A stretch of DNA of 63,276 bases, counting the filler, from Hausera hauseri (taxonomy: Eukaryota): assembly GCA_046269625.1 (NCBI GenBank). It is 9 parts of 9 records of this genome, joined end to end, with 100 filler letters (N's around TTAATTAATTAA, not from the genome) between each part and the next. Parts side by side here need not be neighbours in the genome. Positions count along the whole stretch, not along the records: positions 37,846 to 52,939 come from JBJURY010466577.1; 8 more parts are not named here. One strand, 5' to 3'. Under the pieces are notes generated by a model. The model saw nothing but the letters and a program-made list of their open reading frames with translations. It did no database searches and was not told the DNA's origin. Positions 10,896 to 60,885 of this stretch are shown here, in pieces. Position 1 is the first letter of the stretch, and the number at the start of each line of letters is the position of its first letter. The position numbers and the translations under genes were made by a program.

Positions 10896-11713
10896 GTGTA
10901 TGTACAATTTAGAACCAGAAATTCTGAATTTTTTCTAGAAATAAGATATGCAATTCCGCGACCTAATGATGCTTTAACTTCCATTAGGAAGCACGTTATT
11001 AGAATTGACAATACCAGCCAACATCTGCTAAAGTTAATGGATCAAGAAACCGTCGACGTTGTTGTAGGGTCTGTTAGAAACGTTATTAACCGCATGTGGA
11101 ACTATTTTGGGTGTAAAGTTGCAACATATGCTAATAAGAATGTTTCATTTAGGCAAGTGTATAAAGCCGATGAAACGAAATCAAATCCATTGGTAAAGTG
11201 TTTTGTGAAAATTACAGGGAACAAGTTAAGGATCAAGCCATCAATTAATGAGATTCAAGTCAACATTCAAAAAATTACTGCAACAATTCAAACTGATATG
11301 AAAAAAGTTACAAAATGGTCAAAGAAAGGAACATGGGGGACATTAGAAATCGACTTAAAAGACGTAACAACTGAAATGCAAAAGAATGCAAATATCATAG
11401 TAAAGGATCTGGACGATGATATAAACAGAGATGATAAGCCTAGAGAGAAAAAACTAACAAAAGAAAATTCCATAATAACTTCGACCAATGCTCAGAATGA
11501 AGCAGAATTAAAAAGTAGTCAGTTGATAGATAAAACTAAACCAAAGGCATTTATTCTTGCAAAAGGAATTGTCAAATTTATGGAGAATAAACCGTCTATG
11601 TATGATTTCCAGAACAAAATTAAAGAATTGGACGTGATGCGAGAACAATTCGAAAATGAGCTTCCTTATCATCTGATAGGACCATCTTTAATCGATACTA
11701 GTAAATTTAAATT
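10896..11713 (+). pseudogene. Axonemal dynein heavy chain (DNAH5/8-like) stem fragment
   Basis: PLVKCFVKITGNKLRIKPSINEIQVNIQK...VTKW and FMENKPSMYDFQNKIKELD...YHLIGPSLIDTSKFKL resemble remembered DNAH5 stem segments. No motor domain. Confidence 0.55.
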
Positions 11714-11725
11714 GTATGAAGAACC

Positions 11726-33199: not shown

Positions 33200-33204
33200 T
33201 TGTC

Positions 33205-33563
33205 TGTCAATCGAAAATCGTACGACGACGACGTTTGTATATAGTTGAAAAGCTAGCTGATCTACCATGCTTTCTCAAGCCACTACCAGCGAATTATTTT
33301 TTTACTGATTCAACGACTCCCCGTGTGGCGCTTTTTATTTCTGACAAGGCGTGTTCCTTCAGTGATGGTAAAATCGATTTATTTTCATATAGTGCAACCT
33401 GTGATGTTTTTGCTGCCACTGTTCCAATACGCCTCAATACTGGAAATGCTAAACGTGCCAGTGTACACAGCCATCCAGAGGCCTACTGCTTACCAACGAA
33501 ATACGGCAGTTTACCACCTTGATGGGGTTTACTGTAAATAGAAACGATTTCAGAATCAGTCAT
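33205..33563 (-). pseudogene. Polinton core/PX-like basic protein
   Basis: My translation: HQGGKLPYFVGKQ*ASGWLCTLARLAFPVLRRIG...GSGLRK...KRRRRTIFD; has QGG/GSG protease-site-like motifs. Confidence 0.6.
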
Positions 33564-37845: not shown

Positions 37846-40212
37846 AACAGTATAGCCGAAAAACAAACAGAAGACCAACAAACTGGTTATATCATTAACT
37901 ATGTGAAAACAAGAAAATTTCCACCTCATGAAAAATTAACTAAATACCTTAAAAAAGAAGGTCAAAAATTTCTATTAGATGAAAACGTATTGAAATATAA
38001 TAGAGATGGTCAACTTCTAGTAGTCATACCAAAACATTTACGAAATGCCGTACTTTATCAAGAACATGACTCGAATTTAGCAGGTCATCCATCTTCGAGA
38101 AAAACCAAGAAGCGAATAAAACAGAAATACTATTGGCCTACAATTGAACAAGACGTTAAAGATTGGGTAGACGAATGCAAAATGTGTGCAACAATGAAAA
38201 ATAAAGGTAAACGTTACAGACCAGAGTTAAAATCGTTACCAGAACCAAACAGCCCAATGGAATTATGTGCCATGGATTTCTCTGGACCTTTCCCAACGAC
38301 ACCAAGAGGAAATAAATATATATTATTATGCATAGACTATCTAACTAGTTACCCTATACTAATTCCAACAAAGGATTTACTAGCCACCACAGTAGCAAAA
38401 AAATTTATTAATAAAATAGTTTGTCAATTCGGTGCACCACGTTATCTACTAACTGATAGAGCACCAAATTTCCGTAGTGAATTGTTGAAAGAAATCACAG
38501 ACATTTGTCAGACCAGTAGAATGCTAACATCAGCATATCACCCTCAATGTAACGGAAAAGTTGAAAGACTAAACTATACCGTGCAATGTATATTATCAGC
38601 TATGATAGATAAAACACAAAATGATTGGGATATCCATTTAAAAGTCGTACAATTTGCAATAGCAACTACGCCAACCAGCTCATCAGGATATTCACCGTTC
38701 AAATTATTATTTGGCAGAGATCCGCTCATGCCAATAGATATCCAATTATTACCAGAAAAGGCAATACCTGAAAAACAATCAGATGAAGATCTACATGAAA
38801 GTGTAGTAAGTAGTTTAGCAAATTGTTGGAAAAAGGCCAAACAATCTATCAAGCAATATAAACAAGACTATCAAGAATATTACAATAGAAAAGCTAACCC
38901 TCATAAGTTTCAACCAGGAGATAAAGTGATGGTGCATTACCCGGTAGCTAAACCAGGTAAATCACTAAAATTAACACGTACAGGTAAAGGACCTTATCTA
39001 GTAGTAAAAGTTACACCAGAAAATATATTTATAGAAAAGGGCACTGGTAAAAAGACCAGAATTGAATGCATTTCTGCCCAACGGGTCACAAAAGGACCAA
39101 AAGAATCCAAATCGGAAGAAGAACCACGATACTCCTTAAGATCAACTAAACAACCAGTTCTAAAACCAACATCTAGTCTCGAACAATTACTTTTTATAGT
39201 TATAATTTTTGGTATAATATTATCAGCCACAGGACAAGTATTAGAAACAAACCCAATAATGACGGGTCTGGAACAACGAATAGACATAAAATGGAAATAT
39301 GTAAAAGAAAGGTTAAATGTATTATTTTTAGGAGAACCAATTTTTAAAGAAATCACGCAATTGATACTACCTTCCAAAGAAATAGAGTTTTGGATGTTAA
39401 CTAAAAGATGTGTCAGAACCACGAACAGAATATGTTATCTTAATTTGTTCTTCTTAACAACACAAGAACTCTTACAAAAGGGACAAAGATTTATGCCTAT
39501 AGCAAAGCAAGTATATGTCGAAAGATTCCAACAAATCTTTTCCTTTGGTCAAAGAGACCACACACCAAAATTAATAGACAAAGTCATCATGAAAAGGCCT
39601 ACGTTAGTAAATGAAGTTGATCTACAAATAACATATTATTTACCTAAATTCTTCAAACATAAATCAGGTAAGAAGGCTTTAGACTTTCATATCCATATGT
39701 CATTAACACAGTTTTTTGGTTTAATACCTACGACAACGCCAAATTCAGTGGAAGACGAAGAAGAACAAATTACTGACCATAAATTGAATAAAATACCAGA
39801 TATCGATATAACCACGGCAGATGTATATATCGAATTCAAAGTTCTACAACTAGTAAACAATCCAATTTCTATAACTTGCACAGGAAAATTCCATGAAATA
39901 CAGGTTGTAATAAAACAAAAAGAAAAAATGACTAGATGTACTAATCTTCAACCAGATGAAGAATATCTGATCGTCTTCAAACAAGACCAAGCGATAACCC
40001 AATATCAAACAGTTAGAACCCAGACTAAAATTCAAAAATATCTCATACCCGAAGAAAATCTAGTCTATACACAAACACTACCCATAACTACTCCTAAAAT
40101 TTACAACAATGTTAACCCATTAAAAGACTATCATACCATTTACTATTATAATAACTCTCCTATTGCTAATTTCCCTACCATTTACAATAATCGAAATCAG
40201 AAAATGGAATAA
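37846..40212 (+). CDS. pol: Polyprotein C-terminal part: integrase, internal signal peptide, FN3-like accessory domain
   Basis: H..H/C..C zinc finger, MDFSGPFP, LTDRAPNF, AYHPQCNGKVERLN, KGPY; hydrophobic LLFIVIIFGIILSATG (39187-39234); TNLQPDEEYLIVF. Confidence 0.92.
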   Translation, partial: NSIAEKQTEDQQTGYIINYVKTRKFPPHEKLTKYLKKEGQKFLLDENVLKYNRDGQLLVVIPKHLRNAVLYQEHDSNLAGHPSSRKTKKRIKQKYYWPTIEQDVKDWVDECKMCATMKNKGKRYRPELKSLPEPNSPMELCAMDFSGPFPTTPRGNKYILLCIDYLTSYPILIPTKDLLATTVAKKFINKIVCQFGAPRYLLTDRAPNFRSELLKEITDICQTSRMLTSAYHPQCNGKVERLNYTVQCILSAMIDKTQNDWDIHLKVVQFAIATTPTSSSGYSPFKLLFGRDPLMPIDIQLLPEKAIPEKQSDEDLHESVVSSLANCWKKAKQSIKQYKQDYQEYYNRKANPHKFQPGDKVMVHYPVAKPGKSLKLTRTGKGPYLVVKVTPENIFIEKGTGKKTRIECISAQRVTKGPKESKSEEEPRYSLRSTKQPVLKPTSSLEQLLFIVIIFGIILSATGQVLETNPIMTGLEQRIDIKWKYVKERLNVLFLGEPIFKEITQLILPSKEIEFWMLTKRCVRTTNRICYLNLFFLTTQELLQKGQRFMPIAKQVYVERFQQIFSFGQRDHTPKLIDKVIMKRPTLVNEVDLQITYYLPKFFKHKSGKKALDFHIHMSLTQFFGLIPTTTPNSVEDEEEQITDHKLNKIPDIDITTADVYIEFKVLQLVNNPISITCTGKFHEIQVVIKQKEKMTRCTNLQPDEEYLIVFKQDQAITQYQTVRTQTKIQKYLIPEENLVYTQTLPITTPKIYNNVNPLKDYHTIYYYNNSPIANFPTIYNNRNQKME

Positions 40213-40603
40213 AAAACGTAATATAATGAACAGAACCTTATTACTTACAACAAGCCTAATATGTTTAGTTAATATTGATAGGGAGGTGAAATTGGCAGTG
40301 AGCGTTTTTGAGACTAAAAGTTACAAACGAACAATAATAATACCACGTGTGAAAAAATCAACGTTAATGCAATATAATACGCAAAAAGACAAACGAAGTC
40401 CACCAATAATTGATGAACTAATAAAGTTAAACCTCACCAACATAATTAAAGGTCAAAAACAATCAATAATACGGCATATTTTATGCAAGGCAAATCTATC
40501 AACAAATAATCAACCAATCAAATTTAACTACATAAAGTTAAGTAAAATATACATACACGGGCTATATAATAAAACTCGTAATCAAAATCATTTCTTTTTC
40601 AGC

Positions 40604-42637
40604 ATGTCACACTTTAATATTGACCTCGATGCTACCGATGCAGAGTCAGAATCCTCAGTCTCATCAACCGAAACTGTGATCCCTAACCCTAAACGAAGGG
40701 TTATATCATCTCAACAACAATCCAATTCATTCTCTTTTCAAAATCCAACTCAAGGATTATATATGAGTAGAGGTATTCTAGCTAACCCTACCAAAACAAT
40801 AACAAATCAAACTAAACAAAAAATAAAATCTATGGTGGAAATCAGGAAGAAAGCACCAAGTTTCGAGGACTTACCTAAAGAAAAACGGGCTAAACTTCAG
40901 AAACAAATATTAACTAATTTTCAAGAAACAGAAATGGATCGAATAATGAATCGACCTTGGGAAGAATTGTATAAAAAATATATAAATATTTACGATATAC
41001 AAACAAACATATTTCCGTCAAAATTTTATAACCGAATAACAGAATTATCGGAAACATCATTGGATATACTCTTCCCAGAATGTAAATATTTGGAAAACGC
41101 CCTAAAAACTTCTACTACAAACAGTAGAACTTTCCGAATATTGAGAATAGAAAATGCAAGATACAATGTTAACCTTAACGATATTTTATATCCTAACCAA
41201 CTAACAGAAAAGGTCTTAATTCATGTAACCCAAGGAAAAATACAGTTTAGAGCCCATTCGGAAACTTACGAAAGTGTGGATCCTCAAATTTCGACATTAA
41301 CTGGAAAAACCTCCATGAGGATTAAATATCCTGCTCTTCAAACATCAATTTATTTCAAAGTAATATTATTTCCGGTAATACTCGGACTAGAAGTATGTCA
41401 AAAAATGGATGATAACAAAGGATTTAAAGAGCCAAATTTTTACAAAAGACCACCAAAAGATGAAGTCTGTAATTATCGGCTAACAACAGCCAATAATTAT
41501 AGATATCTAGCAGTTTCACTGGCCTATGCCTCAAACGGTGATCCCCTTCCAGTGGAAGTAATTATTGCAGATGAGGAAAAGCTCATTATTTATCAGGCTT
41601 ATCTAAATCCTAGACGAAAAATAGCCAATACAAATGAGCACATCCATGGATTATCACTTTCTATAATTGAAGAAGCAGAGGATGAAGAAACAATTAGAGG
41701 TGAAATAATACAATATTTATATGGATACATAATTATTAGTGCTAACACTAGCACTATCCTCAAGGCTTTACGGATACCCGAAACCTTTCTGTTTGGAATA
41801 ATGGATATATTATCCACACCTAATACAAAAATTAGGTTTGCTGAAGAAAAATTAAAAATTAACCTTACCCAACTGCCAAAAGTGTATGGATTTCAATACG
41901 AGTTCCCAAAAACGGCCGAGACCATAATACAGGTATTAATCGAAATATATAATAAAATATCACAGACTTGTTCAAATGAACATTGGAAATTCGATTGGGA
42001 ACCACCATCAAATAATTTGATTAATGATGGATCCTTCATGGAAATTGCAGAAAAATATCATACAAACTATAAATTTGAAAAAATCCAACCTTCAAGTATT
42101 AATGAAGATCAAATTTCATCATCAATAAATCAATTAAAGAATAACACAATTCAGATAATACGTCAATTAGAAAATAAATGCCCAGCAATAAATGTATCTA
42201 TTATACTATTTGGACAAACCAGTCAAATAATTAATGTCTTTTATATTCAAGAGCCAACAACGACTCTCAATCAAAACAAACAGATAATACCCGATCCAAC
42301 GCATGGCAAGGTGATAGGCATAGTGTATAAACACTCTATGCATTCCACTCTCCATTTAGCTGCCATAGGAGCTAATATGGAGAAAATACAGCAAATCAAA
42401 GATGAACCTATTACTACGGTACAACCTATTCCAATGCAACTTGACCTTATTCCAATCCCTAAACCAAGGGGAGGAAAACACCTTAGCTTAAAAAACACAA
42501 CCAGAGCCAAACTTCGCATGTTGTTATTTGAAAACAGAGGCCAATATCAATTGGAGAATATTTTCAGAATGGAAACCACAATTCAGAAGGAGAATAACGA
42601 CAGAATGAAAACAGTTGACATTGTAATCCAATTATGA
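40604..42637 (+). CDS. Accessory ORF2 (677 aa from ATG 40604; frame open from 40163) with inactive DEDDh exonuclease-like domain
   Basis: Intact ORF. TTTCTTTTTCAG acceptor-like sequence directly before the ATG. REX4-like pattern at ~41498-41950. Confidence 0.75.
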   Translation: MSHFNIDLDATDAESESSVSSTETVIPNPKRRVISSQQQSNSFSFQNPTQGLYMSRGILANPTKTITNQTKQKIKSMVEIRKKAPSFEDLPKEKRAKLQKQILTNFQETEMDRIMNRPWEELYKKYINIYDIQTNIFPSKFYNRITELSETSLDILFPECKYLENALKTSTTNSRTFRILRIENARYNVNLNDILYPNQLTEKVLIHVTQGKIQFRAHSETYESVDPQISTLTGKTSMRIKYPALQTSIYFKVILFPVILGLEVCQKMDDNKGFKEPNFYKRPPKDEVCNYRLTTANNYRYLAVSLAYASNGDPLPVEVIIADEEKLIIYQAYLNPRRKIANTNEHIHGLSLSIIEEAEDEETIRGEIIQYLYGYIIISANTSTILKALRIPETFLFGIMDILSTPNTKIRFAEEKLKINLTQLPKVYGFQYEFPKTAETIIQVLIEIYNKISQTCSNEHWKFDWEPPSNNLINDGSFMEIAEKYHTNYKFEKIQPSSINEDQISSSINQLKNNTIQIIRQLENKCPAINVSIILFGQTSQIINVFYIQEPTTTLNQNKQIIPDPTHGKVIGIVYKHSMHSTLHLAAIGANMEKIQQIKDEPITTVQPIPMQLDLIPIPKPRGGKHLSLKNTTRAKLRMLLFENRGQYQLENIFRMETTIQKENNDRMKTVDIVIQL

Positions 42638-42802
42638 ATCACATTGTGACTTTTACTTTCTGATTTTGAAATCTTCTTGTACTCTTTCATACCTTCTTGT
42701 CGTATTCTTCACCCTCATATTCATTGTATTATTTTTATTGTATTGTAAATAACAACTGATTTCGTTGATTTTTCAAAATTTTACTGATTTAAAATTTTTT
42801 TT

Positions 42803-42817
42803 AAGGGGGGGGGGAGA
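42803..42817 (+). promoter_or_regulatory. Polypurine tract
   Basis: AA(G)10AGA immediately before the TGTT LTR start. Confidence 0.9.
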
Positions 42818-43714
42818 TGTTAGGATTTGACACATAGATCTCATAGAGGTTTCACACAAGGAGGAACATTTTAAATCAATTGATTACTGTTAGGGTTTAG
42901 AACTTAAGATTTAGATTTTAGATTTAGAATTCAGTTTCTAAAATTAGAAATGCGTTGTCACAAAGTACAGAGAACCCTGGAATTCAGAATTCGGTTTTAG
43001 CGTTGTTACAAAGTACAGCCGCGAAATAACCATTTAGCGTAGTTACAAAGTGTAACAGACAAATTATGGTTACTAAAAACAGTAACCCTTTAAGAGCTGT
43101 GTACAACACCCCTCTGCCCCAAATTGAAAATGATACCAAAAAAGGTAACAAATTCACACCTCCACCATCACCCATAAAATAAGTATAAAAGTAAGACCTA
43201 AAATCATAACGACAAGAACAATTTTACTTAAACATATAAAAATCTATAATGTTTAAAGGATTAACGAAATCAGTTATGAAAGATTATTTTTCAAGTTCAG
43301 TTGTATTACCATTCTTTGTTATTTGAATATAACTGAGTCTCTCGGAATATTTATTTTATTTTCAATTGTGGAAAAATCAATTTCGGGATAAAAAGGGAAG
43401 AAAAGTAAATTTCATTTTTACTTTCTTTTTAACAATTATTTTGTTAATTCATTTATTCACCTTCTTCGTTGAATAAATAAATTTTTAATCCCACAAATTA
43501 ATAGCGTTGCAGTCGAAACCATAGTAGACTACGCAATCTTTCACCAATTAAATAAAATTAAACATTAAGAAATTAATTCTACTTTTGTTTTAAATATCCT
43601 TCATCAGATCTATAAATTACACAAGGGTTAAATAAAACCACAATACAAATCACAAACAGAATCCAATTTAACTTTTGAAAAATTCAAGTTGAAATTTTGG
43701 ACACCGAACCAACA
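42818..43714 (+). repeat. LTR (897 bp; single collapsed copy)
   Basis: TGTT...AACA termini between PPT and PBS; TATAAAA at 43184-43190, AATAAA at 43472-43477. Confidence 0.88.
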
Positions 43715-43718
43715 TTTC

Positions 43719-43736
43719 TGGCGACCCTAGCAGGAC
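43719..43736 (+). promoter_or_regulatory. Primer-binding site, tRNA-Arg type
   Basis: TGGCGACCCTAGCAGGAC, 4 nt after the LTR end; resembles the complement of a tRNA-Arg 3' end (TGGCGACC as in 412/mdg1 elements). Confidence 0.82.
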
Positions 43737-43934
43737 TGTTTGTGCTATAGTAACACATATAAAATCATAAACATTTCTAGCCCTAGAAAAGCTAAACTTG
43801 AAGCTAGAAAACGCATTGCTGCCAATTTCGCATCCATAGATAAATCAAAAAATCTACAACCTATTTTAAAAGATTTAACAGTTGAAATTGAACCACTAAA
43901 ATTAGACTTAATCGAAAAAGAAATTGAAAATAAT

Positions 43935-46900
43935 ATGGCTAATTTACAACCTATTAATTTAACTGTGTTCGAACCACTGAATATACCAAAATATAATGGT
44001 GACCCTGCAGGTTTACTAAAATTCCTAAAAACTTATCGACTCTTAAGTGAAGGATTAGGTGTTGAACAACAAGCCTATATCCGTAGAATGCCATTATACC
44101 TTGATGAAGTTGCACTCGATGTTTTTCAAGAATTATCAACTGAAGAAAAAGCTGATTGGGATAAATTAACCTCAGCTTTAATTAAACGCCTAATGCCTAC
44201 AGTTACTCCAACGGCTCAACTAGCTATCTTGCAAAGACGCTTCCAACAAACTGGAGAAACTGTCACCCAATATTCATACGCTTTGTCCGAATTAGCAAAA
44301 AATTATGCTAACACCGTAAAGACTCAAATTTTAATTAAAAAGCCTAATGCAAAAGAGGCAGAATTAGAAGTAGAAACCGATATCCACTTGTTAACGCAGT
44401 TTTTAAAAGGTGTTAGAAAGGATATCAAAACAGATATCTTGAAAAGAAACTGTTTAACTTTTAAAGATGCTGTAAGAGAAGCACAAAATCTCGAAGCTTA
44501 TGTAGGCCCCTATAAAGATGAAAGACCACCAAAATCTAATCAAAGATTTAACAATAATAATCCAAATAATCAACAAAATCAGCAGCAAAACCAACAACAA
44601 AATCAACAGCAAAGTATTAACAATCAGCAACAAAAACAAAGTAAACCTCAACAAAATCAAAATAATTATGGAAACTCAAACAATTCATATCAAAAAGATA
44701 ATAATTTTGGTAAAAAACCATTCAATAAAAATAATTCATCAAACCAATATCAACAGAAAGGTCGAGTTGATATCAACAAAAATGGTACCCCCATAGTTTG
44801 CAAAAGATGTGAACTAACAGGACACAATTCCATAAATTGCATGACACCAGTAGATCAACTCCCAAGAGTGAAACAAGAAAAAAGTGTAAATCTTTCGTCG
44901 CTTCATGAAACGTTAGAAGACGTAAAATTAAAATTAGATAAATTACCACCAACGGTAAAGGAACAGTTTATAAACCAAGCTGCTAATGAAAGCAGAGAAG
45001 TGGATACAATGTTGAAAAGATACAACGCTGGAAAGTACAAATCACAAGTATCATCTATGTTAGAAGAAGATGATTATACTGACGAATTCATTACAGATAG
45101 TATAATTTTATCTACTAGAAAACGAGCAGTAGACAAGGTAATGCAAGGAATACCATTAACACCAGCCGAAGAACTATTACTTAATGCAATGCCAATAGGC
45201 CCTGAATCAAGATATGATAGTCATGGCATTAATGAACCTAATATTTACAAAGATAATGAGACTAGTTCACTTTTCCCACCTTTTCATATTAATGAAAATA
45301 TTGAAGAAAAAGAGGAAAATAACGATGAAACAATAGCTGTCATAGATCTAGACAAATATTCTGATAAAGAATCTGAAAAATCGCTCCATATTGACGAAGG
45401 TTCCGATAAATCCATCCAGATAACAGAAGAAGTAGAAACTATACTTAAACAAATGGACGAAATAGATATAACAGATCTTAACAAACCAATCTTGAATAAA
45501 CCAAGTTCTCAAAATATAATTAAATCAGACAGTGAAGAATTTTTATCAACAGTTCATAAAAAGAAAGGCAAAAAGATGGATAAAGCAGAACCATCAACTA
45601 CTGAAATAAGTAGAGAAGAAAAATTTATAGCGCAAAATATTAAACAGGATATTAAAAATATCCTAGCTGGAGAAATACCTTCCTATGCTAAGGATCTGCC
45701 TGAGATGCAATTAGTAATAGTATCAAAGCAATTAAACGATCCAAAAGCCCTAAAACAATCAGAAATCTTTAAAGATCTATTACAGGTACTAAAGCAAGTA
45801 CATAACAATAGATATAAACAACAATGTTTAAATATAGAAAACATCATTGATGAAGTTTTAGGAAGACCTAAAGATATAGAAAGTCATACTCGCAGCAATC
45901 CAGTTGAGATCATAGATTTGACTGAATATTCTCCAGAGATCGAATTTAATATAAGACAAATTTTAGCTAAAGCTAAAAATTTTAATATGGAAGAAATTCC
46001 AGATATCGAACAACTACAAAATCTCTTAGAAAAATTAGAAAACTACCTTCAACAAAAAAGAAAAATACCTTTCTTAGAGCGTCAAGATATACAAAGTGCA
46101 ATGAGAGATTTACAACAAAAGATTGTAGATTTCGAACTTAAAAAACAATCTATAGTAGAAATATATTTTGACATAGATAAAATAATTCAATCAAAGTTAT
46201 CTAGGCAAGAAAAAATGAGATGGCTAGAACGAAAAAATCTAGTTGCACAGACAATGGAGTTTCCGTTTAAAAAAGAAAATGAGCAAAAAAGGTCTGAGAT
46301 TCGACAAGAAATTATTAAGTTTACTAAACCAAGTAGACAGAAAGTAAATGAATTAAAAACCAGAATTGAAAACCTTAGTAGAATGAATTTACCAAAGTTA
46401 TCCCAAGAAAAGTTAAATAAACAAATGTTAAAGTTGAACAAATTCAAAACCACCTTTACTGAAAATGATCGAGCTAAAATCGATGCCATTGAATATTTTC
46501 TAGATAAAATAGATGACACTCCCAAATTAATGGCACAAATTGAGGAATTAAAAAATAAATTAAGAAGCAAGACCTTTAAACCTCTTGACGAAATAAAAGC
46601 AAGTAAACATCTAAAAACCGTAAATAACTTAAAACCTTTCTTCACAGAGTTGGATAAGAAAAAGATTAAGAAAATAGAAGAATGGTATAAAGATGCTACT
46701 ACAGATCAATATGCATCTCAAGAAAACCTTGTCGATATAGACGACATTGATCCAGCAGAATTAGATGATATAGAAGAAATAAACAATGATGATGATCTCG
46801 AATTAACAGAAAGGGACATTGAAGAAACCCTACAACAATACGAGGAAACATGTAACGAACCGTTATCTAACCAAATAGTACTAGACGAATATTCAGTGAA

Positions 46901-49900
46901 TAAGTTAAAATCTGATATAACCATGACTCAGGTTTGGCCAGAGATCCTAGATGAACACGCATCAAATTGTCTAGAATTAAAACTAGATTTAAAAACAATA
47001 AAAGATAAAATACCTGAGCTCATCACATTAGCAGCGGATAATAATCGCTATAATGCACTCCCAAGGATATTATTAAAAAAATATGGAGAACAGTTTCGGC
47101 ATTTAACACCAATGGTTTTACCTATTAGAGTTCTTACGCTCAAAGCAAAAGACTCAAAAATTATCATGAATACTCATGACACTGTGTTAACAGCAAAGCA
47201 AGTCATAGCACAACAATTGAAAATGAATATCAATTATATGAGAATAATTTTTAATAATCGAATATTAGACAATGCAACACACCTCACGGAAGTAGGTATC
47301 CTCCCAGATGGAAACAATGAAATCCACGTAGTTGAAACAAATCAACTATTAAAAGAAGATGTAATAAGAAGAATATCTGATGGCCAAGACATTAAAATAG
47401 ATGAAGAAATTCTGGGAGTAACAGACAAAAAACTGTTTGTAGCTAAACTTAAAAATAATTTAATTAACCAACAAGAAATTTCATTATGTGACTACGATCA
47501 AGAAATTCACCAAAATATTCCACAACAGCTAATGCAAGCTAAATCAAAAAGAGGTAAAACTAGACAAACTAATGATGAAGTAATCGTCGACTCATTTGTA
47601 CAAAAATTCACTAATGCTGAAGTAATTAAAACAAATAAAAGTTATAAAATCATCCGGGATTTGTTAAAAGAGTTATACGATATCATTAATGGTGTTATCA
47701 CTATTAACAAAGATACACCAAATTGGATAAAAAGTGTTAAAGAATTAGCACTACAATATCAAAAAGAAACAGCACCAAAACAACTTCGCGAACAAATTGC
47801 TCGAAAATTACTGCAACCTATATCAAAAAGGCGTATCGAAAAAACCATGATATACCTGACTACGACAATAACAAACAAATCTGAATTAAAAGAAATAATC
47901 CCAATCATTATAGATCTAATCGAGCCAGATGTTACTCGATTTGGTGGATGGCCAACAATATTTGACAGAGAAATCTTGCAAAAACAACCATTAATTCAGC
48001 AAACTGAAAATAACATTGAAAAATTACCAGAACTAGTAAAACAAATGACGGATGCAATAAAAGAACAGCAAACCGAAGATGAAAAGATGGGCATAACGTC
48101 AACTAAAACAATGATGAATGCATTCTTAGCTATTCTATTAATGCTAACCACTATCCTACCAAAAGGAGCAGGTATAACAATATATGATTGTAATAACAAC
48201 ATAAAACACGGAAAAAAATATTCCTTAATGGATTTAGATAAATGCCCAGACGCATCACCACACAGGATAGTAACACTGCAAGAATATATTTATGTATATC
48301 AACAAAAACAAAAAATACATACGGAAGGGTACGAATGTTCGCTGCAATTATCAGAAAAATGGCAACATTGCGGTATGCACAGTCATATGTCAGAAATAAG
48401 TCCATTCACACCCTTTAAGCAACTGAAATTAACACCACAACAATGCCAAGAAGCAATAAATTACGGACGATACGTTTGGGATGGATCAACAATAGATATC
48501 CAAGTTGGGGAAATTCGAACATATTTGAAATACAAAGAAGGTACCATAGATGCAGCAGGAAATTGTGCATCAAGTGATGGAGGAAAAGGAAAAATACATA
48601 TCCAGAGATTTATAGCTGAATTAAAAGTGGCAAAATTCATCTTTGATACTACTACTAACACCATGGTGGATGCACCATTTTGTAAGTACACAGCAGAATC
48701 ATGTCGAGTCAGAACTGGATTATTATATTGGACAGTTAATAAAAACCAAAATGATTGCCAATTGGCTCTAATTAAAAAAGGAATGTTTAATGTTACAACT
48801 GGATATCGCTATAATGATGAAATGAATAAAAATTTGCCCGATGCATCGGTAAGACGAATACCAGAAAATCCCACATCCAGGGTATATTGGTCTAGTAACG
48901 TGACAGAAGGAATGAAATTCATCAGGCAAGAGGCAGTAGTAATATGTGGAACAACACTATGGAGAACAAATTATCCAAATTTCTTCATTTCTCAAACTTC
49001 TGTAAATCAAGCAGACGGAACCTTTGCAGATAAAACTCAACATTTAGATCTCCAATCATATATAAGAAATCGTGACGATTACTTATATTTCATTACTACA
49101 AAAAGTATACATGAAATGTATTCAGAAGTAATTGAAAATGATTGCAGATTAAATCAAGAAATATTACGAACAAAACTATCATTAATAACATCAAATCCGG
49201 ACATGATAGCACCAGCGTTACCATTAATGGAAGGGATGTTTGGAAGAGTCATCGGAGAAACTCTGATAACTTTTAAATGCGAAAAAATAGAAGCAAACTT
49301 AGCGGTAGATAGAAAAATAGTAAGCACTTGTACCGCCGAAATACCTATAACAATTAATGGTGAAACAAGATATGCAACACCAATAACACGAATCCTATTA
49401 CCAAAACAAACTAAGCCAACAATTATCCAAAATTGTACAGGTTTAGTAAAACCAATAATAAAATTTAATAATCAAGATCAATGGGTACAATTGCCAGAAG
49501 GTACTATTGTAACCACACCAAGTAAAATAACAATGACAGCATTAAAATACGCCGTCGATATAAATTTATTTCAGGACACGTCACAAGTTGGATTATATGG
49601 ACCAACAGAAGTGAACGCTTTCATCAAACAAATAATGTTCCCTATAATGAGAGAACAGGAATTTAATCGAGTTGGACATGCCGTTCTAATGAGTGAATCA
49701 TCTAATCGAGACTACAGTCAAGGATGGCAAACAGTATTGAATCCCAACTTACATGAAGAAGCAGCTAAACGAGTTTTTAAAAAGTTATTTGGAAGTTTTC
49801 AGTGGTTTGGAAATATAGCTGCAGGAGTTTTGGCCATTTACTATATACTAATGTGGATAAAAATGGGACTCATGTCATGCATAGATGCTTATGGTATATA

Positions 49901-52900
49901 TACCATAACAGGATGCACATGGAAAATTGCAACAGCAATTATTAGACCAATAGGAAGAATCCTTATGGTACATCAAGAGCATAGATGGAAACAGGGAATA
50001 GAAAAACATGTAAATTACATTCCACCTCACAAAAAATATCATAAAAAACCTCCAAAACCGCCTAAACGAACGTCGGGATCAGTTAAAGGAAGTTTGAACG
50101 ATTTACGACAACGATTTAAAAAATATGCGTCAAGTAACCAAGAGGAAGAATACGATAAAATCCAATGTAACGTTGATAAAAAGTGGCTTGATTACCAACC
50201 ACCATATCAGCCAATATTAAAACCATTGCCAGATTACCCAACAGCACCTCCAAATTATAAATCAGACACAATGTTGTATAGTCCCAGAAGGCCAACGTCA
50301 CCAATAACTAATATGCCACTTGTAAATCCTGAATTGGCTCAAATGTTACAAAACAAACAAAGTCAATCCACTTCGCCCAAAAACTTCGAAGAAGTATCCA
50401 TCCATGATACTTACGAACAACGAGAAAGATATGCTAAATTATCAGTAATAAAACCAGATAAACAAAATTTATATCCAACAAATCAATTAAAAAATTATCA
50501 AGAAAATACGGATGAACTTGGCCCGACAAATGTTGTAGTTTTTGGAACAAATAATTTTACCATTTCGATGCTAAGTGAAATAGAATCCACAGAAGGAGCT
50601 TTAGATCCTCATTTAAATCAGACCACACGAAGAAAAGTCGATAAAAGACCAAGAACACTAATCAAAGTTGGCGGCTCGATATTTAAAGCATTAGTAGATA
50701 CAGGTGCCTCGATATCAGTGATAAAGGAATCACTAATTCCAGAAGAAAAGAAATGTGAATTGGTTGTTCCAGATATATTACCATCCGGAACAAGTGTATT
50801 TGGAGATTCACAGACTCCAGTAGCTTATTGGGAAACCGATGTGCATATTTATGGAGAAATATTACCTGCCAAATTTAGAATAATGAAAGGACTTGTCGAT
50901 GAAGTAGTAGTTGGAATGGATATATTATCCTTGTTAAAAGATATGGTATTAGACTTGTCAACAGGACAATGTAAACCATACAAGAAAGATACCCTACCTG
51001 ATGGATATCAACAAAATACAGTTTGGATGGACACAGATGAAGATATTCCACCAATTACCGAAGTAGTACTATTTGCAAATGTAGCAATTAATGATGAAAG
51101 TAAAGATTTCTTTTTTCAACCAAAACAATTACATAATGAAGATCTAATAGTAATACCATCAGTAAGTAAAATCATTGGTAACAGAATACCAGTTAGAATT
51201 ATAAATGTCGGAGTAGGACAAACTTGGTTAAGACGAAATCAACGAATTGGAGAAGTAATCGCTTCTGTAACCGAAATAAAAGAAGAACCACCTAAACCAA
51301 AGGAGTATATTCTCTTACCAAAAATAAAAGATACCGACTTAAATTTAGAAGAATATGCTGAATTTAGTCTCACGCTATTAAAATACGAAGATGTATTTGC
51401 CAAGAATGAAGATGATTTAGGAAAATTGAAAAATTTTCAAGTTGCAATAAAGTTAAAAAAGGACCCAGAAACGGGATACGAATTGGACTTAGCAAATCAA
51501 CCTCAACCAAAATATTATCTCCCACCAGAAGCAGTTCGACAAGATCTAGATGATGAAATCAAAAGGTTAATAAGACTAAAAATAATAGAAAAAACTAATG
51601 CCCCATGGGTATCACCAACCCTAATGGTTCCAAAAAAGAACACAACGAAAAAACGTTTGTGTATTGATTTTCGGCATATAAACAATTTTATAATAAGTGA
51701 CACCTTTCCACTACCAAAAATAAAAGAAATAATCGAAAAATTGAAGAATAGTGAATTCTATATAACAATTGATTTTCAATGTGGATTTTGGCATGTTAAA
51801 ATTGACAAAGAAGACAGATACAAAACCGCATTCAGAGTACCACGAGGAATTTACCAATTTAAAAGAATGCCTTTTGGACTAAAAATAGCTCCATCAGTAT
51901 TTCAGAGACTAATGACTCAAATTCTAATAGAGGAAAACAATCCTGGCGCAGAAATAACGAGCAATAATAATGAAGGAGACATGGTATACATCGATGACCT
52001 TGTCTTAACTGGTACAAGTTTTAATCAGTTAATGGAAAAGTTAGAGGATAAGTTACAACGATGTAGAAAAACAGGTTTAAAAATCAACCCTATGAAGTGT
52101 AAATGGTTTAAACGTGAAATAACTTATCTTGGATTCAGAATATCAAAACAAGGAATAACTACAATGGATGATATAATTCAAAAAATTATTGAATATCCTA
52201 TACCATTAAATAAAAAACAATTACAAAGATGGTTAGGATTAGTTGGATTCTATGCAGACTTCGTGGAAAACTATGCACAAATAAACTCACCATTATACCG
52301 ACTATTAAGAGCAAAAGTCAAATGGGAATGGACAGAAGAATGCCAAAATGCTTTAGACGAAATGAAAAAGCGGTTAATCTCAGCACCAATAATTCAATAT
52401 CCAGATTACGAACTACCATTCATTATCAAAACCGACGCAAGTGGAAAAGGTTTAGGTTACATATTGGCCCAACAAACACCACATGAAACCACAGAACATG
52501 TCATAGTCTACGGAAGTAGATCACTGAAACCCGCTGAAACTCGCTATGCAGCAACAGAACTCGAATTATTAGCAGTAAAAGAAGCTCTAAAACACTATTA
52601 TTACTACATCTATGGACAAAAAATTATTTTGTACACCGATCATATAGCGTTATTAAACAAAAAATTTGATCAAGAACTAACTAAAAGGATGAATAAATGG
52701 TTAGCATATATCAAAGATTTCGATATAGAATTCAGATACAGACCTGGTAAAAACAATACGGATGTAGATGCATTATCTAGAATGTATGAAAATATTTCAT
52801 CCTTGGACGAGAAAGAGCATTTATTTAACAAACTCTTAAAACAATATCGAGAAATAAATACGAACAGTATAGCCGAAAAACAAACAGAAGACCAACAAAC

Positions 52901-52939
52901 TGGTTATATCATTAACTATGTGAAAACAAGAAAATTTCC
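43935..52939 (+). CDS. Giant Gag-UBL-Env-PR-RT-RNaseH polyprotein (continues through the circular junction to 40212; ~3,764 aa)
   Basis: Capsid motif IPKYNGDP; CCHC at 44799-44840; UBL at 47112-47333; signal peptide at 48111-48173; glycoprotein with YDC/CGMHSH; TM ~49800-49970; DTG at 50697; YIDD at 51987; IKTDASG. Confidence 0.95.
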
Positions 52940-55043: not shown

Positions 55044-56829
55044 GTGCCCTTCATAGTCTTATCGATTCTTCTAACTCTAAAAGTCTGAGTGTACTTTATT
55101 TTTGTCGTACTTCTGGAATTTGCACGTTTTGTATAGTTATTACTCCAATTTTAAAGGGGTCTTGACATTCTGCTTGTTATATATTGATTGAATCAAAAGG
55201 TGTCGTTTGTTCTATTATAGCAGAATTCCCCGATTAATAAGTGCAGTAAAACAAAAAGAACGATTTCTTTACGTAATATTGATGGTATATATATGGAATG
55301 TTTAGTATCCTGGTATCAATCGATGGAAGAAGCAGTATATCAACAAACTAGCATTGGGTTTTGTAGTTTTGTTTTGATTTTTGAATCACTTATAGAAGAA
55401 GTACCGTAAAGCAGAAGTTACAAAAGTGGAATCATGTATGCAAGAAGTGCCGTAAATTTCTATATAACAATAAAATATAGTTTACATATGTATTAATTCA
55501 ACATGAGACGTTAAATCTTTTGTTGGACGTGTTGTCTATTTTATGGTTTCATATAGGGAAACCACTTAAGCAATAAGTACCATAAATGCCTATGTAACAA
55601 TATTACTTACATATATCAATTCAACATGAGACGTTATGCATATTTAATTATGAGTTATAAAATGGTATTTAAAAAATGAAGGAAGAAACATGAAGTTGTG
55701 TTTATACAAAATGTACATTATGCAGCAGCAGCTTTTCCAATATTCCTGTACTATGTTAATACTCCAATTGGTTTACCCATGTTTTGAAAATCGGTGTATT
55801 GGTTGCTCCTGCATTTCATCCATACTTTTTGTACACTTCAATCAAATTGAAAATAATATATTTGGATATCTTTGTTTCATAACATTGTTTCCATTGAATT
55901 TCACAAAGGTTAGAATTGACAGTTTCAAGATCACTGTGACTAGGCACGTTGATGACATGTTCCATAATGTTGGAAAGTAATAGTTTGAAGTTTGCGTTTT
56001 TTGGATACAGACACAATTTATATCTCTTATGTTTACTACTTTATATGTGCGTGTTAAAACAATACATTAACACATGAAAAAGACGATAAGACACTAAAAC
56101 ATACGAATTTATTCATAAAATAGAAAAACTTTCAATGAACAGACTCTACGTCCAATCCGTTTGTCCAGCTTAATAGCATTTGTCAATGTCACCAGTATCT
56201 AATGTTATCACTATTTCACCATCTTCTTCTTCTTCTTCTTAATAAGTGTATAATATTTTCATTCCATTGAAAATTTGTTTCCCTAGAATAATTTTGTACC
56301 TTGCATGTTATACCAATCTGCTAAAATATGTTCTCATATTAATTTGGATTCCATGATCGGCCATCGTCCATCTTTTCAATATTAAAGGGACTCCGAATGA
56401 TATTCTTCCATCTATCACTGGCAAATTGAACCTACCCTCATTTTGACTTCTCGTTATATCTTCAATCATTTTCAAATTATGACAAAATTTGTTTAATATT
56501 CATACGTTTTATCATTTATTTTATTGGCTGCAATTTTCTGAAAATTAGTATAAATAAAGTGACCATTTACATTTATTTTGGAATCAAATTTAATTTCAAT
56601 TGGAATTTAACTTTAAATCAAATTTAACTTAAAACGAATAGAAATTTATAGTACTTCTTGCATGAGTAGTTCCCCAATATTAACCAAAATGGTTATAAGC
56701 AAATCATTTTTAATATTACAAAACGCCATACAAGAAGAGTTTATTAACACATAAGTTTGAGTATTTTTTGTTTCATGCTGGGGGATGACTTATTCAAGAA
56801 GTACCATAAATTTCTATTCCATGTTAATT

Positions 56830-57270
56830 TAAATTTGTATTATTTATAAATTTGATTTTAAGTTAAAATTGATATTTTGTAAAATTTGATTTACTTATAA
56901 ATTTGATTGTAAGTTAAAGTTGATTTCAATTTATATTTGGTTTAAGTTAAATTTGATTTTAGGTTATATTTGATTTACTTCTTAGTTCAATTTTTTGTTA
57001 AATTTTATTTTAGGTCAAACTCGATTTTAAGCTAAATTCCATTTGAAGATAAATATGATTATAATATTTATTTCATTTTAAATTAAATTCTATTTTAAGT
57101 CAAATTCGATTTTAAGTTATATTAGACTTTAATCTAAATTTGAATTTAGTTAAATTTGATTTGAAGATAAATATGGTCATAATTTATATTTGATTTCACG
57201 AAAAATTTGATTTTAAATTAAATTTGAGTTTTAGTAAAATTTGATTCTAAGTAAAATTCGATTTTAGTGA
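56830..57270 (+). repeat. Degenerate AT-rich tandem array (~17-nt unit AAATTTGATTTTAAGTT)
   Basis: Many imperfect copies of aaattYgattttaagtt. Confidence 0.75.
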
Positions 57271-57289
57271 AAACGGATATAGTACAAGA

Positions 57290-57390
57290 GTTATGTAGGA
57301 ACGAATTTACACGAAAATCCATCAGCTACAAACCATTTCCTCTAAAAAGAAGGCACTGGACCCGTTTGATGATAAACAGCATTGAGCTCA
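57290..57390 (+). pseudogene. Possible Polinton-type DNA polymerase B C-terminal scrap
   Basis: HQLQTISSKKKALDPFDDKQ resembles the K.ALS.FDDKR C-terminal motif; very short. Confidence 0.4.
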
Positions 57391-57864: not shown

Positions 57865-58018
57865 TACTTTCCTGTTTAGTACGTAATTTTTCCTGTTCCT
57901 GTTTATGCAGCGCGCCATGTTTTTGCGTTCGTATAAATTGCGCTACACATCTTTGTGTTCACTTGTCGTGCTTTGTGGTTTGGCAGCCAGTTCTACTATC
58001 ACACACGCCCTTTTCCCC
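57865..58018 (-). repeat. PPT and start of 3' LTR of the F-env Gypsy element
   Basis: Minus strand GGGGAAAAGGG (58018-58008) followed by TGTGTG at 58005; cut by the contig end. Confidence 0.6.
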
Positions 58019-58880
58019 ATTAAAAGATATTATTTTCTACACACAAGTAGATAAAAATTTCTTTTCTATCTACTGTCCCTCATAATTTTTCATTCTTGCT
58101 TTAGGTACTACCTATATCACTCTAGTAATAATAGCATCACTTATGCATTTAACCAATCAACACTTGAAAAATTAAAAACTAATGACCAAATATCAATTTC
58201 TTACAACATCTCATCATCGGCAACTTCAAAGAATTCAAAATTTCAATTTCTAACCATACTATTTACATGACATTTATAAATTCTTCTAATTAATACCAAG
58301 TAATCAATACAAGTGTGGTGGCTTGTCACATTATTTCTCCTTCATCGACCACCAGCAAATATCATCATACATATTATATACACATTATTATCCTCAATAA
58401 CAATTAACTTTAACACAACATGTCTACCCTATTTATTCCTTGCACTGTTAATTTCTCTTTCGTCCTTCACACTCATCCGTCATGGACATCTACTTGGATG
58501 TACATGGTATCTGTGGGTTTCTTTTAACCACTTTAATTCCCCACAGTGACCTCATTCGCACTTCCTTTCACACTTCTCATTCGCGGGTTTGGGTTGGTTC
58601 TTAAGTCTCCCAGTCCCAACGTTAGTGCAAGTGCTAAAATTTCGAAAAAATTTTCTGGTGTCTCTTGGGCTTGTCCTTATTATATGCCCCTCGCCCAATA
58701 AAAAGTATTTTCCATTCTTCTCTAAGAGTGGGAAATATCTTTTCTCACTCTAAGTTAAATTATCCATCCGCCCCTAGTATAACATTTAAACCATCTTTTC
58801 CACTATATCCTTTGCTTTATCTTTTAGCCCTGTTTAAGAACTATTGGTGAGAAGAAGGGTTCTCCCATTCTACTGGTGTT

Positions 58881-60854
58881 TTAAGCTTTTTGGATCGTCA
58901 GGTTGGGGTAAATTGACCCAATATCCCTGTACTCTATCCGCCTCTCTGTTGTGGTTAGTTCTCCTCTTTCTGCTTGCTCGTATTTCTTATTTTCTTTGTG
59001 CTTAACATATGTGTCTTTTATTCTCTTCCACAAATTATATCGCTTACTAAGCCCAAAGATTAGACCGCATATTGTGACTGCTGCTACAATGCTTATGATA
59101 CCTATGTCCTTTGTTCTATTTCTATCGTCAATCTCTTGAATGGCTTGGAATTGTTCTAATTCGTTTAACATCTCATTATAGTTTATCTTTTCTATTGCCT
59201 TTAGATGAGTGGGAGCTTTCCCAAATGTAAACTTTAAGTTCTTTACCGCTGTTTCTGCTTCTAGGTTCTTCCACTGCTGCTCAGTAATGTCGATGTTGAT
59301 AGTATTAATCTTCGATGTCTCGACATTCACCTGCGAGTCAAATGTCTGTGGTTCTGCAATGACCATTTCTTTCGAATATAAGGAACATCCTGTTTCTAGT
59401 TGAAGTACTTCCAGTTTCTTTGTTAAATGTACTGCTTCTGTCTCCAGTTTTCCTTCCCGTTCGCATAATTTCTGTGCTTTTAATTCAGTTTTCGTGATTA
59501 CTATCCACGTGCCTCTACCAATCTTTGTTGCCTGCGGTATCTGCGATCTCTTGACTAATTCTTTTCGACAAAGTTCCTCAGCTCTTTCTCTGTTACCTTC
59601 GTACATGTTCAAGATACACGATTCTGCTTGTTTTGTTGTATACATTGGTTGTGAAACTTCGCAATATGCAGTGATCGCTCTGCGGCAGTTGTTAAATTCT
59701 TCCTGCTGTAGAATCGTATACATGGTGCCTGCCTTATTAATCAGTAGCGCCTTTCCGTCTGGAACATTTCTAATGTAATAATTTTTCCACCATTCGTTCT
59801 GTTTGTCTTTTCTATCGTCGTTTACCCTTCCAATACTGGTGACTTCGTATAGTTCATATTCTTCGTTCGTGTCGACTAATGGAATATTCATCGTCATGAT
59901 AAGCTGACCTCTATTCACATAAGTTTCCGTTTCTAACTGCTCATAATAGTCGATTAGATGTTCGTTGATGTTAATCGGCATTCTAAGATTTGGTGGAATA
60001 TTTCGTTGGATGCCTTCTAAAATCACTTTTAGTTCAGTTGGATTCATTGCATTGACGTTCAATCTCTTTAGGGTTGTGAGACTTATAATATCTTCTATAT
60101 TGTTCGCAATTCTCTCGGTTCTTCTCACTAGTTCGCTACATCTGCCTTCAAGTGACATCAGCATTCCTAGCGTGTTTATTCTAACTTCGAGTTCCTTGGT
60201 CATATTTTCCATGTTACCTTCCATTTCTTGCATATAATTTTCAATTCTAGTTATATGGGTTGCATACTCATTGATTTTTCTTCTATTTTCCCCGATTTCT
60301 CTGTTTGACACGTTAATTGCTGATATGCTGCGCTCTACTACATGTTTCATAATTTCAATGTTGCCATTAATGACGTGGACGCTTTGCTTTATGTTTTGTA
60401 CTTCATCGTCTTTTGCTGTGCCAAATAGGGTGTCTAGGATATCCCCTATAAATGGTAATATTGCTCGCTTCTCTTTACTTCTATTAATCCAATTCAGTCT
60501 CTCTTTTACGTTCCGAATTTCGTCTTGCCACTGTCTTACTTCTTTCTCCAATTCTAACATCATGCTCTGGAAATGTGTAGCATTCGTCGTCTTTTGAATT
60601 CTATTGCTTGCGTATACTCTGGCGTGTAGCAGTCTTCTAGCTCTCCCTAATTTTTCTTCTACATCTATTATTTGTCTTTGGAAATTCGTTAGTGACTGCA
60701 TGATCACTAATTTCCAGTGGGCTTTCACTTGGTGGATTTCTTTAACTTTGACAAACACTGTACCTTCACTTTGAAAGATTTCTTCTCTGGCTTGCGTCGA
60801 AACGACGATTATCCAGCTTGTGATGACAGTCATCAACCGATGAGAATTCATCAT
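58881..60854 (-). CDS. env: F-type (baculovirus F/errantivirus-like, class I) envelope protein, intact
   Basis: Signal peptide, basic cleavage site RSKEKR followed by fusion peptide AILPFIGDILDTLFGTA, heptad repeats, Cys-rich region, C-terminal TM; acceptor-like TTCCACAG just upstream. Confidence 0.9.
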   Translation of the reverse strand: MMNSHRLMTVITSWIIVVSTQAREEIFQSEGTVFVKVKEIHQVKAHWKLVIMQSLTNFQRQIIDVEEKLGRARRLLHARVYASNRIQKTTNATHFQSMMLELEKEVRQWQDEIRNVKERLNWINRSKEKRAILPFIGDILDTLFGTAKDDEVQNIKQSVHVINGNIEIMKHVVERSISAINVSNREIGENRRKINEYATHITRIENYMQEMEGNMENMTKELEVRINTLGMLMSLEGRCSELVRRTERIANNIEDIISLTTLKRLNVNAMNPTELKVILEGIQRNIPPNLRMPININEHLIDYYEQLETETYVNRGQLIMTMNIPLVDTNEEYELYEVTSIGRVNDDRKDKQNEWWKNYYIRNVPDGKALLINKAGTMYTILQQEEFNNCRRAITAYCEVSQPMYTTKQAESCILNMYEGNRERAEELCRKELVKRSQIPQATKIGRGTWIVITKTELKAQKLCEREGKLETEAVHLTKKLEVLQLETGCSLYSKEMVIAEPQTFDSQVNVETSKINTINIDITEQQWKNLEAETAVKNLKFTFGKAPTHLKAIEKINYNEMLNELEQFQAIQEIDDRNRTKDIGIISIVAAVTICGLIFGLSKRYNLWKRIKDTYVKHKENKKYEQAERGELTTTERRIEYRDIGSIYPNLTIQKA

Positions 60855-60885
60855 TTTCTGTGGAATTATATATTCCTTGTTACTG

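Follow-up and report, generated by a model that had tools for sequence, protein, structure and literature searches.

We consider it quite likely that contig JBJURY010466577.1 is a Ty3/Gypsy LTR retroelement of the Burro-like gag-env-pol kind, in which one frame encodes Gag, a fusion protein of the chuvirus/gB type and Pol. The contig occupies positions 37846-52939 of the window, the whole stretch of 63,276 nucleotides (filler included) analyzed from the Hausera hauseri assembly GCA_046269625.1. The resemblance of its envelope points to a flatworm element, and the product is probably a membrane-threaded polyprotein cut by host signal peptidase and by the element's own protease. With half the size of Burro, the element represents a compact and seemingly intact case in which capsid, envelope and enzymes are supplied from one frame. 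This layout has already been published, and the element adds a member, not a kind. All features given below lie on the plus strand.

Translation of positions 43935-52937 gives 3,001 codons with zero stops, while the remaining two plus frames across this region contain 322 and 289 stops; the odds of such a stop-free stretch at the same composition are about 1e-108. The first ATG downstream of the primer-binding site is located at 43935, and the main ORF (43935-52939), which accounts for 3,001 codons at the start of the polyprotein, reaches the contig end and enters a 77-nt repeat of the contig start (52863-52939). This assembly overlap closes a circle between RNase H and integrase, and the joint 52862->37846 is also present in run X1. 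Of the nine contigs in the window, this is the only one whose two ends share an identical 77-base sequence. The integrase-bearing 5' piece encodes 788 aa, ends with a stop at 40212 and was matched by Integrase_H2C2 and rve (Pfam). As proposed in the sequence-only reading, the frame crosses the circular junction into integrase, since the 77-nt overlap keeps it; by arithmetic across the overlap, the polyprotein totals 2,976 + 789 = 3,765 codons, or 3,764 aa. Pfam domains follow each other in the 3,001 aa as Retrotrans_gag (53-131), ubiquitin (1064-1133), Monjiviricetes_fusion (1394-2041), RVP (2236), RVT_1 (2565-2736) and RNase H (2799-2929). Translation and domain order thereby confirmed the single stop-free frame and the gag-env-pol order claimed in that reading, and its assignment to Ty3/Gypsy agrees with the pol order PR-RT-RH-IN, in which IN follows RH across the overlap.

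The collapsed circle has 15,017 nt, corresponding to approximately 15.9 kb with two LTRs. It contains a single collapsed LTR of 897 nt with TGTT...AACA ends (42818-43714), the boundaries of which were deduced from the polypurine tract and the primer-binding site. The polypurine tract (42803-42817, AA-G10-AGA) lies directly before the TG of the LTR, and the primer-binding site (43719-43736) starts with TGG 4 nt after the LTR end and is presumably of the tRNA-Arg type. All three features had been reported from the sequence and were found again at 42803-43736. Either the assembler merged two near-identical LTRs to give the 15-kb circle, or the molecule is a circle with one LTR. Recent activity of the element is plausible from the open frames and the catalytic residues; the single collapsed LTR precludes dating by LTR identity. 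A search of the whole contig gave no Rfam match.

The Gag capsid domain (43947-44495) was detected by a weak Retrotrans_gag match (E 8e-4 for the separate piece, which stays below the curated cut-off) and by BLAST matches to the relatives P0003 (E 1e-22) and P0021 (E 6e-15). It is followed by one CCHC zinc knuckle motif (44799-44840, aa 289-302) and a gag-env linker of about 1,080-1,090 aa. The linker contains a ubiquitin-like domain (47124-47333; PF00240, E 5.9e-8 as a piece), the same region being matched by P0003, and just upstream of env a weak, probable Bcl-2-like module (47607-47969), which ends in a GGW motif and corresponds in place and motif to P0001, P0127, P0134 and P0139. Equally good matches to the Bcl-2-like motif were obtained with 5 of 1000 shuffles, the profile rows having been partly chosen by that motif. 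The counterpart in P0127 is recognized by Pfam Bcl-2 (E 1e-3), and the element's own piece gave no match in Pfam, PDB or BLAST. Downstream of env, we identified an aspartic protease (50640-50954; DTG at aa 2255, RVP E 3.9e-8) and a reverse transcriptase with YIDD followed by RNase H with its acidic catalytic residues present (51492-52784; Pfam, motifs). The PR-RT spacer (50982-51269), located at the site of Burro's dUTPase-like domain (label from PMC6431247), matches P0004 (E 3e-8) and had no match in a Pfam scan. The integrase (37846-39141), in the main-ORF frame, shows an H2C2 zinc finger, a D-D-E core and a terminal YSLR motif. The ubiquitin-like domain, the probable Bcl-2-like module, a signal-like segment after the integrase and a second ORF of 837 codons had been overlooked in the sequence-only reading.

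The envelope is preceded by an internal signal-sequence-like segment (48111-48173), seen in hydropathy plots and present at the same place in relatives. The ectodomain (48174-49799) was matched by PF24664 with E 2.4e-66 to 2.9e-65. Its structure model (pLDDT 85.3) gave chuvirus-like glycoproteins as the best fold matches in a viral library (E 3e-35), together with herpes gB (E 1e-12); a sequence search against PDB yielded no match. Since Pfam, the structure model and the viral fold library agree, we assign the ectodomain to the class III type. The membrane anchor (49815-49883, around aa 1961) leads into an amphipathic stretch, after which a low-complexity, basic tail extends to approximately 50624. 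The 542-aa ectodomain contains half of the cysteines of the 3,001-aa piece (16 of 32), and the 1,080-aa linker has only 4. Eight of the envelope cysteines (aa 1468-1671, domains I-II) are ordered as in the six Smed rows of the Platyhelminthes C1a group, compared by eye.

The same gene order is found beyond this contig. Among the best 120 of 264 long RT relatives, 8 contain PF24664, and in all eight it lies upstream of PR/RT. The sequence-only reading had proposed looking for this order in other invertebrate genomes, and it is indeed present in independent database proteins from ENA, JGI, NCBI and Logan: gag, env and RT follow each other in one chain in P0019, P0021, P0022, P0034, P0108, P0126 and P0136. 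Because these seven independent proteins share the order, the env block is not a mis-join. Among the contigs listed, none spans env to protease, as might be expected if env had been mis-joined or had recently been inserted passively into an ordinary gag-pol element; an exact 367-nt contig joins linker, signal and env. The chance of such an origin is close to negligible given the independent proteins, the published precedent (PMC6431247) and the third-position bias in env: in related copies from two runs, codon position three accounts for 30 of 42 listed env differences (p 5e-7, limited to the best-supported rows). Scans of metagenome and viral contigs detected no related loci.

Phylogenetic trees were calculated with 121, 50, 30, 24 and 19 rows, picked among the available proteins, the relatives being unnamed. 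In the integrase tree, the element groups with P0004/P0021/P0126 (92/79) and P0019. The RT-RH branch is long and stands apart from the env-carrying clade in all five RT or RT-RH trees. A first AU test spoke against the env-clade grouping (p 0.001), its constraint having split a pair with support 99, P0136 from P0135; in three better-posed AU tests the grouping was not rejected (p 0.13, 0.12 and 0.31). The grouping of the RT with P0038 was discarded as a likely long-branch join, with a support of 22 under a mixture model.

The disagreement between RT and IN trees would also be expected if the contig were a chimera of paralogous copies from a large repeat family, the layout being real and the exact 15-kb sequence not that of one copy. 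Repeat families can recombine in short-read assembly, and run X1 contains thousands of related contigs with 85-95% identity over gag-to-integrase and few over 39862-43389. These are mostly less than 95% alike, and contig depth does not equal copy number. We nevertheless regard a chimera as very improbable, since the element is covered by near-exact X1 contigs whose depths are alike (15-31), one of which, 4,077 nt long, runs from the integrase end through ORF2 into the LTR. X1 may be the source sample itself. Moreover, 3,764 open codons would hardly be expected from a chimera of diverged copies, and the position of the RT can be put down to a long branch.

For the membrane-threaded polyprotein that we favor, translation of the full-length RNA would start at 43935, and Gag and the linker, with its ubiquitin-like and probable Bcl-2-like parts, would be retained in the cytosol. 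The internal signal (aa 1393-1413) would direct env into the ER and then be cleaved. The anchor around aa 1961 would bring the chain back to the cytosol, where PR-RT-RH-IN would remain tethered to the env tail until released by the protease. After the integrase, a second signal would direct another, family-variable ectodomain into the ER. We infer a 1:1:1 stoichiometry and cutting by protease and signal peptidase. The membrane threading suggested earlier from the sequence is compatible with the hydropathy, the luminal cysteines and the relatives, in which no Met is conserved upstream of the env signal; signal peptides were called from hydropathy alone. Within the 40 residues inspected, no Met precedes the signal core in 10 of 14 relatives, and the env signal is therefore taken to be internal. 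The element's own signal begins with Met-Met and, if a shorter RNA were translated, could also function at the N-terminus.

Capsids usually require Gag in excess, and this, like the Met-Met start in this copy, would fit expression of the one genomic frame from several mRNAs. Splicing or internal starts would then yield separate Gag, Env and Pol in unequal amounts, with the frame kept open mainly for Gag-Pol and the 1:1:1 polyprotein a minor product. Cer1 of C. elegans provides a parallel, as it has no gag-pol stop and yet a spliced mRNA (PMC10309623). We judge this scheme unlikely: besides the relatives lacking the Met, the main ORF has no strong MAG/GTRAG donor (simple pattern only), and in 8/8 relatives checked the frame is kept at both borders of env, something that a block removed by splicing would not require.

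The gag-env-pol architecture was taken for an undescribed one in the sequence-only reading. This claim is refuted by the planarian Burro/GYPSM1 elements, whose gag and pol flank an in-frame env (PMC6431247), and by GAG-ENV-POL elements described from three phyla, flatworms, bryozoans and nematodes (Chary & Hayashi 2026, PMC13524379). The single ORF of Burro/GYPSM1 is described as encoding retrotrans_gag, CCHC, Ubi/SUMO-like and BCL2-like domains, an env with mononegavirus fusion-protein hits, PR, a dUTPase-like spacer, RT, RH and IN, alongside accessory ORFs (PMC6431247; Arkhipova & Yushenova 2019). Likened to this published description, not to the sequences, our element shares the in-frame env between gag and pol and the Ubi-like linker domain. 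It differs in size (about 15.9 kb with two LTRs and 3,764 aa, compared to >30 kb and 4,873-5,140 aa) and in having one knuckle instead of two or three, and the MATH, BIR and ankyrin features of Burro had no Pfam match at E 0.1 when both ORFs were scanned (PMC6431247). Conversely, the membrane protein after the integrase and the DEDDh-like ORF of the element are absent from the Burro section of PMC6431247. The Platyhelminthes C1a group (Smed_errantivirus_1-6) resembles the element in gene order and in a gB/chuvirus-type env between a signal/TM segment and an anchor, and by eye its env shares the same eight cysteines and common motifs in domains I-II (PMC13524379). In the text of PMC13524379, as far as covered, the words 'polyprotein', 'in-frame', 'fused', 'immunoglobulin', 'fibronectin' and 'ubiquitin' do not occur, and the single frame, the linker cargo and the post-integrase protein therefore appear to be undiscussed there. 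Atlas virus (Belpaoviridae) likewise has one env-including polyprotein of 2,828 aa with predicted membrane threading, but it belongs to Bel/Pao, has the order Gag-Pol-Env and carries a class II phlebovirus-type env (PMC9094657). The nematode proteins P0096 and P0125, used as stand-ins for NERVs, contain env-PR-RT-RH-IN in one chain and, like the element, have env before pol. Nematode NERVs themselves reportedly possess a continuous gag-env-pro-pol ORF. The env of P0096/P0125 gave no BLAST match to that of the element at E 0.01, their RT was placed elsewhere, and they have no hydrophobic segment after the integrase, unlike the element. No experimental test of gag-env-pol topology or processing was found in the literature searched.

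Less covered in print are the post-integrase membrane protein and the separate degenerate DEDDh-like ORF. In frame after the integrase, hydropathy revealed a second signal-like segment and a predicted ectodomain of about 280 aa (39187-40212), with a C-x-x-L-x-P-D-x-x-Y motif (39931-40020). No anchor is encoded before the frame stops at 40212, and the overlapping +1 frame contains an anchor-like segment. A predicted membrane protein follows the integrase in 5/5 close relatives, compared to 3/78 other gypsy proteins (a count omitting 20 proteins with an early-ending integrase match and 5 cluster duplicates). The ectodomains vary: P0019 has an Ig domain, the element, P0004 and P0126 have a beta-sandwich-like motif in common, and P0021 and P0135 carry others. 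The beta-sandwich or FN3 label of the element's ectodomain is a motif reading that 2 of 1000 shuffles equalled and Pfam did not support, and single-sequence folding reached a pLDDT of 32. We tentatively suggest, as a possibility less probable than its opposite, that in this clade the polyprotein is threaded two times through the ER, and that the swappable surface protein is the attachment partner of the gB-type fusogen, comparable to gD or gH/gL with herpes gB; the attachment role is a guess. According to PMC13524379, gB-type errantiviruses without known entry partners are an open point, to which such a partner, if true, would be an answer. The conserved protein is a testable candidate for cell attachment by retroelements with gB-type envelopes.

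The second ORF (40124-42637, 837 codons, first Met at 40226) lies in the +1 frame, overlaps the first ORF by 89 nt and opens with the membrane-anchor-like segment (40127-40189). The overlap showed neither a slippery heptamer nor a stable RNA fold (z 0.21), and a programmed frameshift there is unsupported. Because the 4,077-nt variant contig of X1 lists no indel at this site, the change of frame is not confined to this assembly. Searches of 7,995 candidates with lengths of 441-1,406 aa returned no sequence relatives of ORF2, and the atlas gave no whole-protein match. Its RNase_T/DEDDh-like domain (about 41483-41953), apparently devoid of the catalytic acidic residues, obtained an atlas score of 0.95 with PF00929 on 59% of the cluster, and matched PDB 2p1j with E 0.59. 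Bdelloid LTR elements with a DEDDy exonuclease ORF3 also carry a DnaQ-superfamily domain after pol; in these, ORF3 takes the place of env and has its catalytic residues intact, whereas the degenerate domain of our element is part of an 800-aa ORF and coexists with env (PMC5408684).

The window consists of nine contigs with N spacers between them, and only the contig at 37846-52939 has identical ends (77 nt). The main ORF of its Ty3/Gypsy-type element starts at 43935, the first ATG downstream of the primer-binding site, and extends over 3,001 stop-free codons up to the contig end, compared to approximately 300 stops in each of the two remaining frames. The sequence-only reading had proposed this open frame and its continuation through a circular junction into integrase. 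Both proposals were borne out: the 77-nt overlap preserves the frame, and integrase is encoded at the contig start, where 788 further codons lead to a stop at 40212. By arithmetic across the overlap the main ORF encodes 3,764 aa. The LTR, primer-binding site and polypurine tract that had also been reported were all located on the plus strand: the polypurine tract (42803-42817) is followed by an LTR-like segment of 897 nt (TGTT...AACA) and by the primer-binding site (from 43719). Since these landmarks occur in the correct order, the circular contig is an LTR element with a single collapsed LTR, and the break that makes it linear falls between the RNase H and integrase regions. The same RNase H-integrase joint was also seen in X1, a sequencing run with contigs related or near-identical to the element. 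The element is probably young.

Pfam searches of the main ORF (plus strand) detected a capsid in the N-terminal part (weak match), a ubiquitin-like domain (aa 1064-1133), a Monjiviricetes fusion glycoprotein (aa 1394-2041, E 2.9e-65) and, after this env, protease, RT and RNase H. Together with hydropathy, these matches confirm the proposed order of capsid, signal-like segment, glycoprotein, TM segment and PR-RT-RH. The catalytic motifs are in place (protease DTG, RT YIDD, acidic residues of RNase H and integrase). The env ectodomain was modelled with a pLDDT of 85 from a 70-row alignment, and the predicted fold matches chuvirus-like glycoproteins best (E 3e-35), with herpes gB lower (E 1e-12). 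A helical stretch with a terminal GGW directly upstream of env aligns with Bcl-2-like modules of four relatives, a weak and partly circular support. In the close relatives P0002, P0003, P0005 and P0130, two to four consecutive protease-like domains follow env, compared to one in the element, and P0104 carries an Upf1-like helicase upstream of env in the same chain as env-PR-RT-RH-IN.

The same env family was found in 8 of the 120 long RT relatives listed, upstream of PR/RT in every case. Seven of the best 10 env matches scanned run on into protease or RT, and three stop at or within env. Gag, env and RT are present in a single chain in seven database proteins; this equal order in relatives shows that the env block is not a mis-join. 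One exact contig from X1, which may be the source sample, bridges linker, signal and env, and further X1 contigs tile the env anchor and tail; none among the matches listed spans env to protease. Among the best-supported rows listed, 30 of 42 differences between related copies in env lie at third codon positions, indicating that env is retained as coding sequence in this frame. Judged by sequence comparison, the gag-env-pol order is genuine. In the NCBI records, the gag-env-pol relative P0126 is assigned to a Flavobacteriaceae MAG; it probably represents animal sequence that ended up in a bacterial genome bin.

The layout is not new, and the suggestion that it was undescribed did not hold. Planarian Burro/GYPSM1 elements carry gag, knuckles, Ubi/SUMO-like, BCL2, env, PR, dUTPase-like, RT, RH and IN in one ORF (Arkhipova and Yushenova, 2019, PMC6431247), and GAG-ENV-POL elements with gB-type env (the chuvirus/herpes-gB-like class) were reported from Nematoda, Bryozoa and Platyhelminthes (Chary and Hayashi, 2026, PMC13524379), following Sacco et al. 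(2022). The element thus belongs to a published kind. The size, knuckle number and MATH/BIR/ankyrin features described for Burro are absent from the element, which we therefore class as Burro-like and not as Burro. By eye, its env shares an eight-Cys pattern and motifs with the six Schmidtea rows of the PMC13524379 alignment but not with the nematode C2 rows, and a flatworm origin is therefore likely.

Translation of the full-length RNA would leave Gag and the linker in the cytosol, the internal signal would carry env into the ER, and the env anchor would bring the chain back to the cytosol, with Pol initially attached to the env tail and freed later by the protease. Only two strong hydrophobic segments are present within the first 2,300 aa, one on each side of the ectodomain, and cysteines concentrate in the predicted luminal part. 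The latter, together with the absence of a Met upstream of the env signal core in 10 of 14 relatives, supports such membrane threading. However, the env signal of this copy starts with Met-Met, and the gypsy element Cer1 is spliced despite its stop-free frame (PMC10309623), which both weigh against certainty of this route. The equal amounts of Gag, Env and Pol proposed by the sequence-only reading are therefore hypothetical.

Downstream of the integrase end motif, the same frame encodes a second signal-like segment and a predicted ectodomain of about 280 aa, which the sequence-only reading had overlooked. A hydrophobic segment at this position is present in 5/5 close relatives, in 0/3 distant env-carrying elements with tails of at least 60 aa and in 3/78 other gypsy proteins. 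The post-integrase cargo differs between relatives (an Ig domain in P0019), and the motif C-x-x-L-x-P-D-x-x-Y is common to the proteins of the element, P0004 and P0126. The anchor is in frame in P0004, P0021 and P0126; in the element the frame stops before the anchor, and an anchor-like segment begins the overlapping +1 ORF. No sign of a programmed frameshift was found at this overlap. Related X1 contigs are dense over gag to integrase and roughly hundredfold fewer over the 3' cargo and LTR start, which fits a variable 3' module. The post-integrase protein was found neither by a word search of PMC13524379 nor in the Burro section of PMC6431247. That it serves as attachment partner for the gB-type env is a speculative and rather unlikely reading. 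The +1 ORF itself (40124-42637, plus strand, 837 codons) encodes a degenerate DEDDh/RNase_T-like domain (atlas score 0.95; PDB match E 0.59), in which the catalytic acidic residues are apparently absent by eye. Searches detected no sequence relatives of this accessory ORF; exonucleases carried by rotifer LTR elements are a precedent (PMC5408684).

The integrase tree placed the element with P0004, P0021 and P0126 (92/79) and with P0019, with bootstrap values not fully settled. RT-RH gave its highest BLAST scores with P0021 and P0019, but it forms a long branch and was not grouped with them in trees. AU tests of this grouping yielded one rejection under a badly posed constraint and none under three others. 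The RT may have been acquired by recombination.

The contig at 57865-63276 carries a second element of usual order (58881-63275, minus strand), with integrase (rve, E 9e-9) followed by a 669-codon ORF. The latter begins with a signal-like segment, contains a basic cleavage-like site upstream of a hydrophobic stretch as well as an anchor, and by eye reads like an F-type env; it has neither an envelope Pfam match nor likeness to gB-type env. An ordinary gypsy at 24137-28425 (minus strand) encodes gag (two CCHC, Ty3_capsid) and pol as separate ORFs, and the end of this region shows 74% similarity with the beginning of contig 57865-63276. A 319-codon ORF (32315-33274, minus strand) gave no Pfam match and by eye resembles a polinton-type major capsid protein. 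The ORF at 10893-11882 (plus strand) resembles a dynein heavy-chain exon by eye, continues into a region that matches ubiquitin weakly (E 0.024) and suggests eukaryote host DNA. A Ser/Thr-rich ORF of 1,005 codons with a Cys-rich C-terminal part (133-3150, minus strand) had no Pfam match, and a tandem repeat array with a 17-nt unit is located at 56807-57296.
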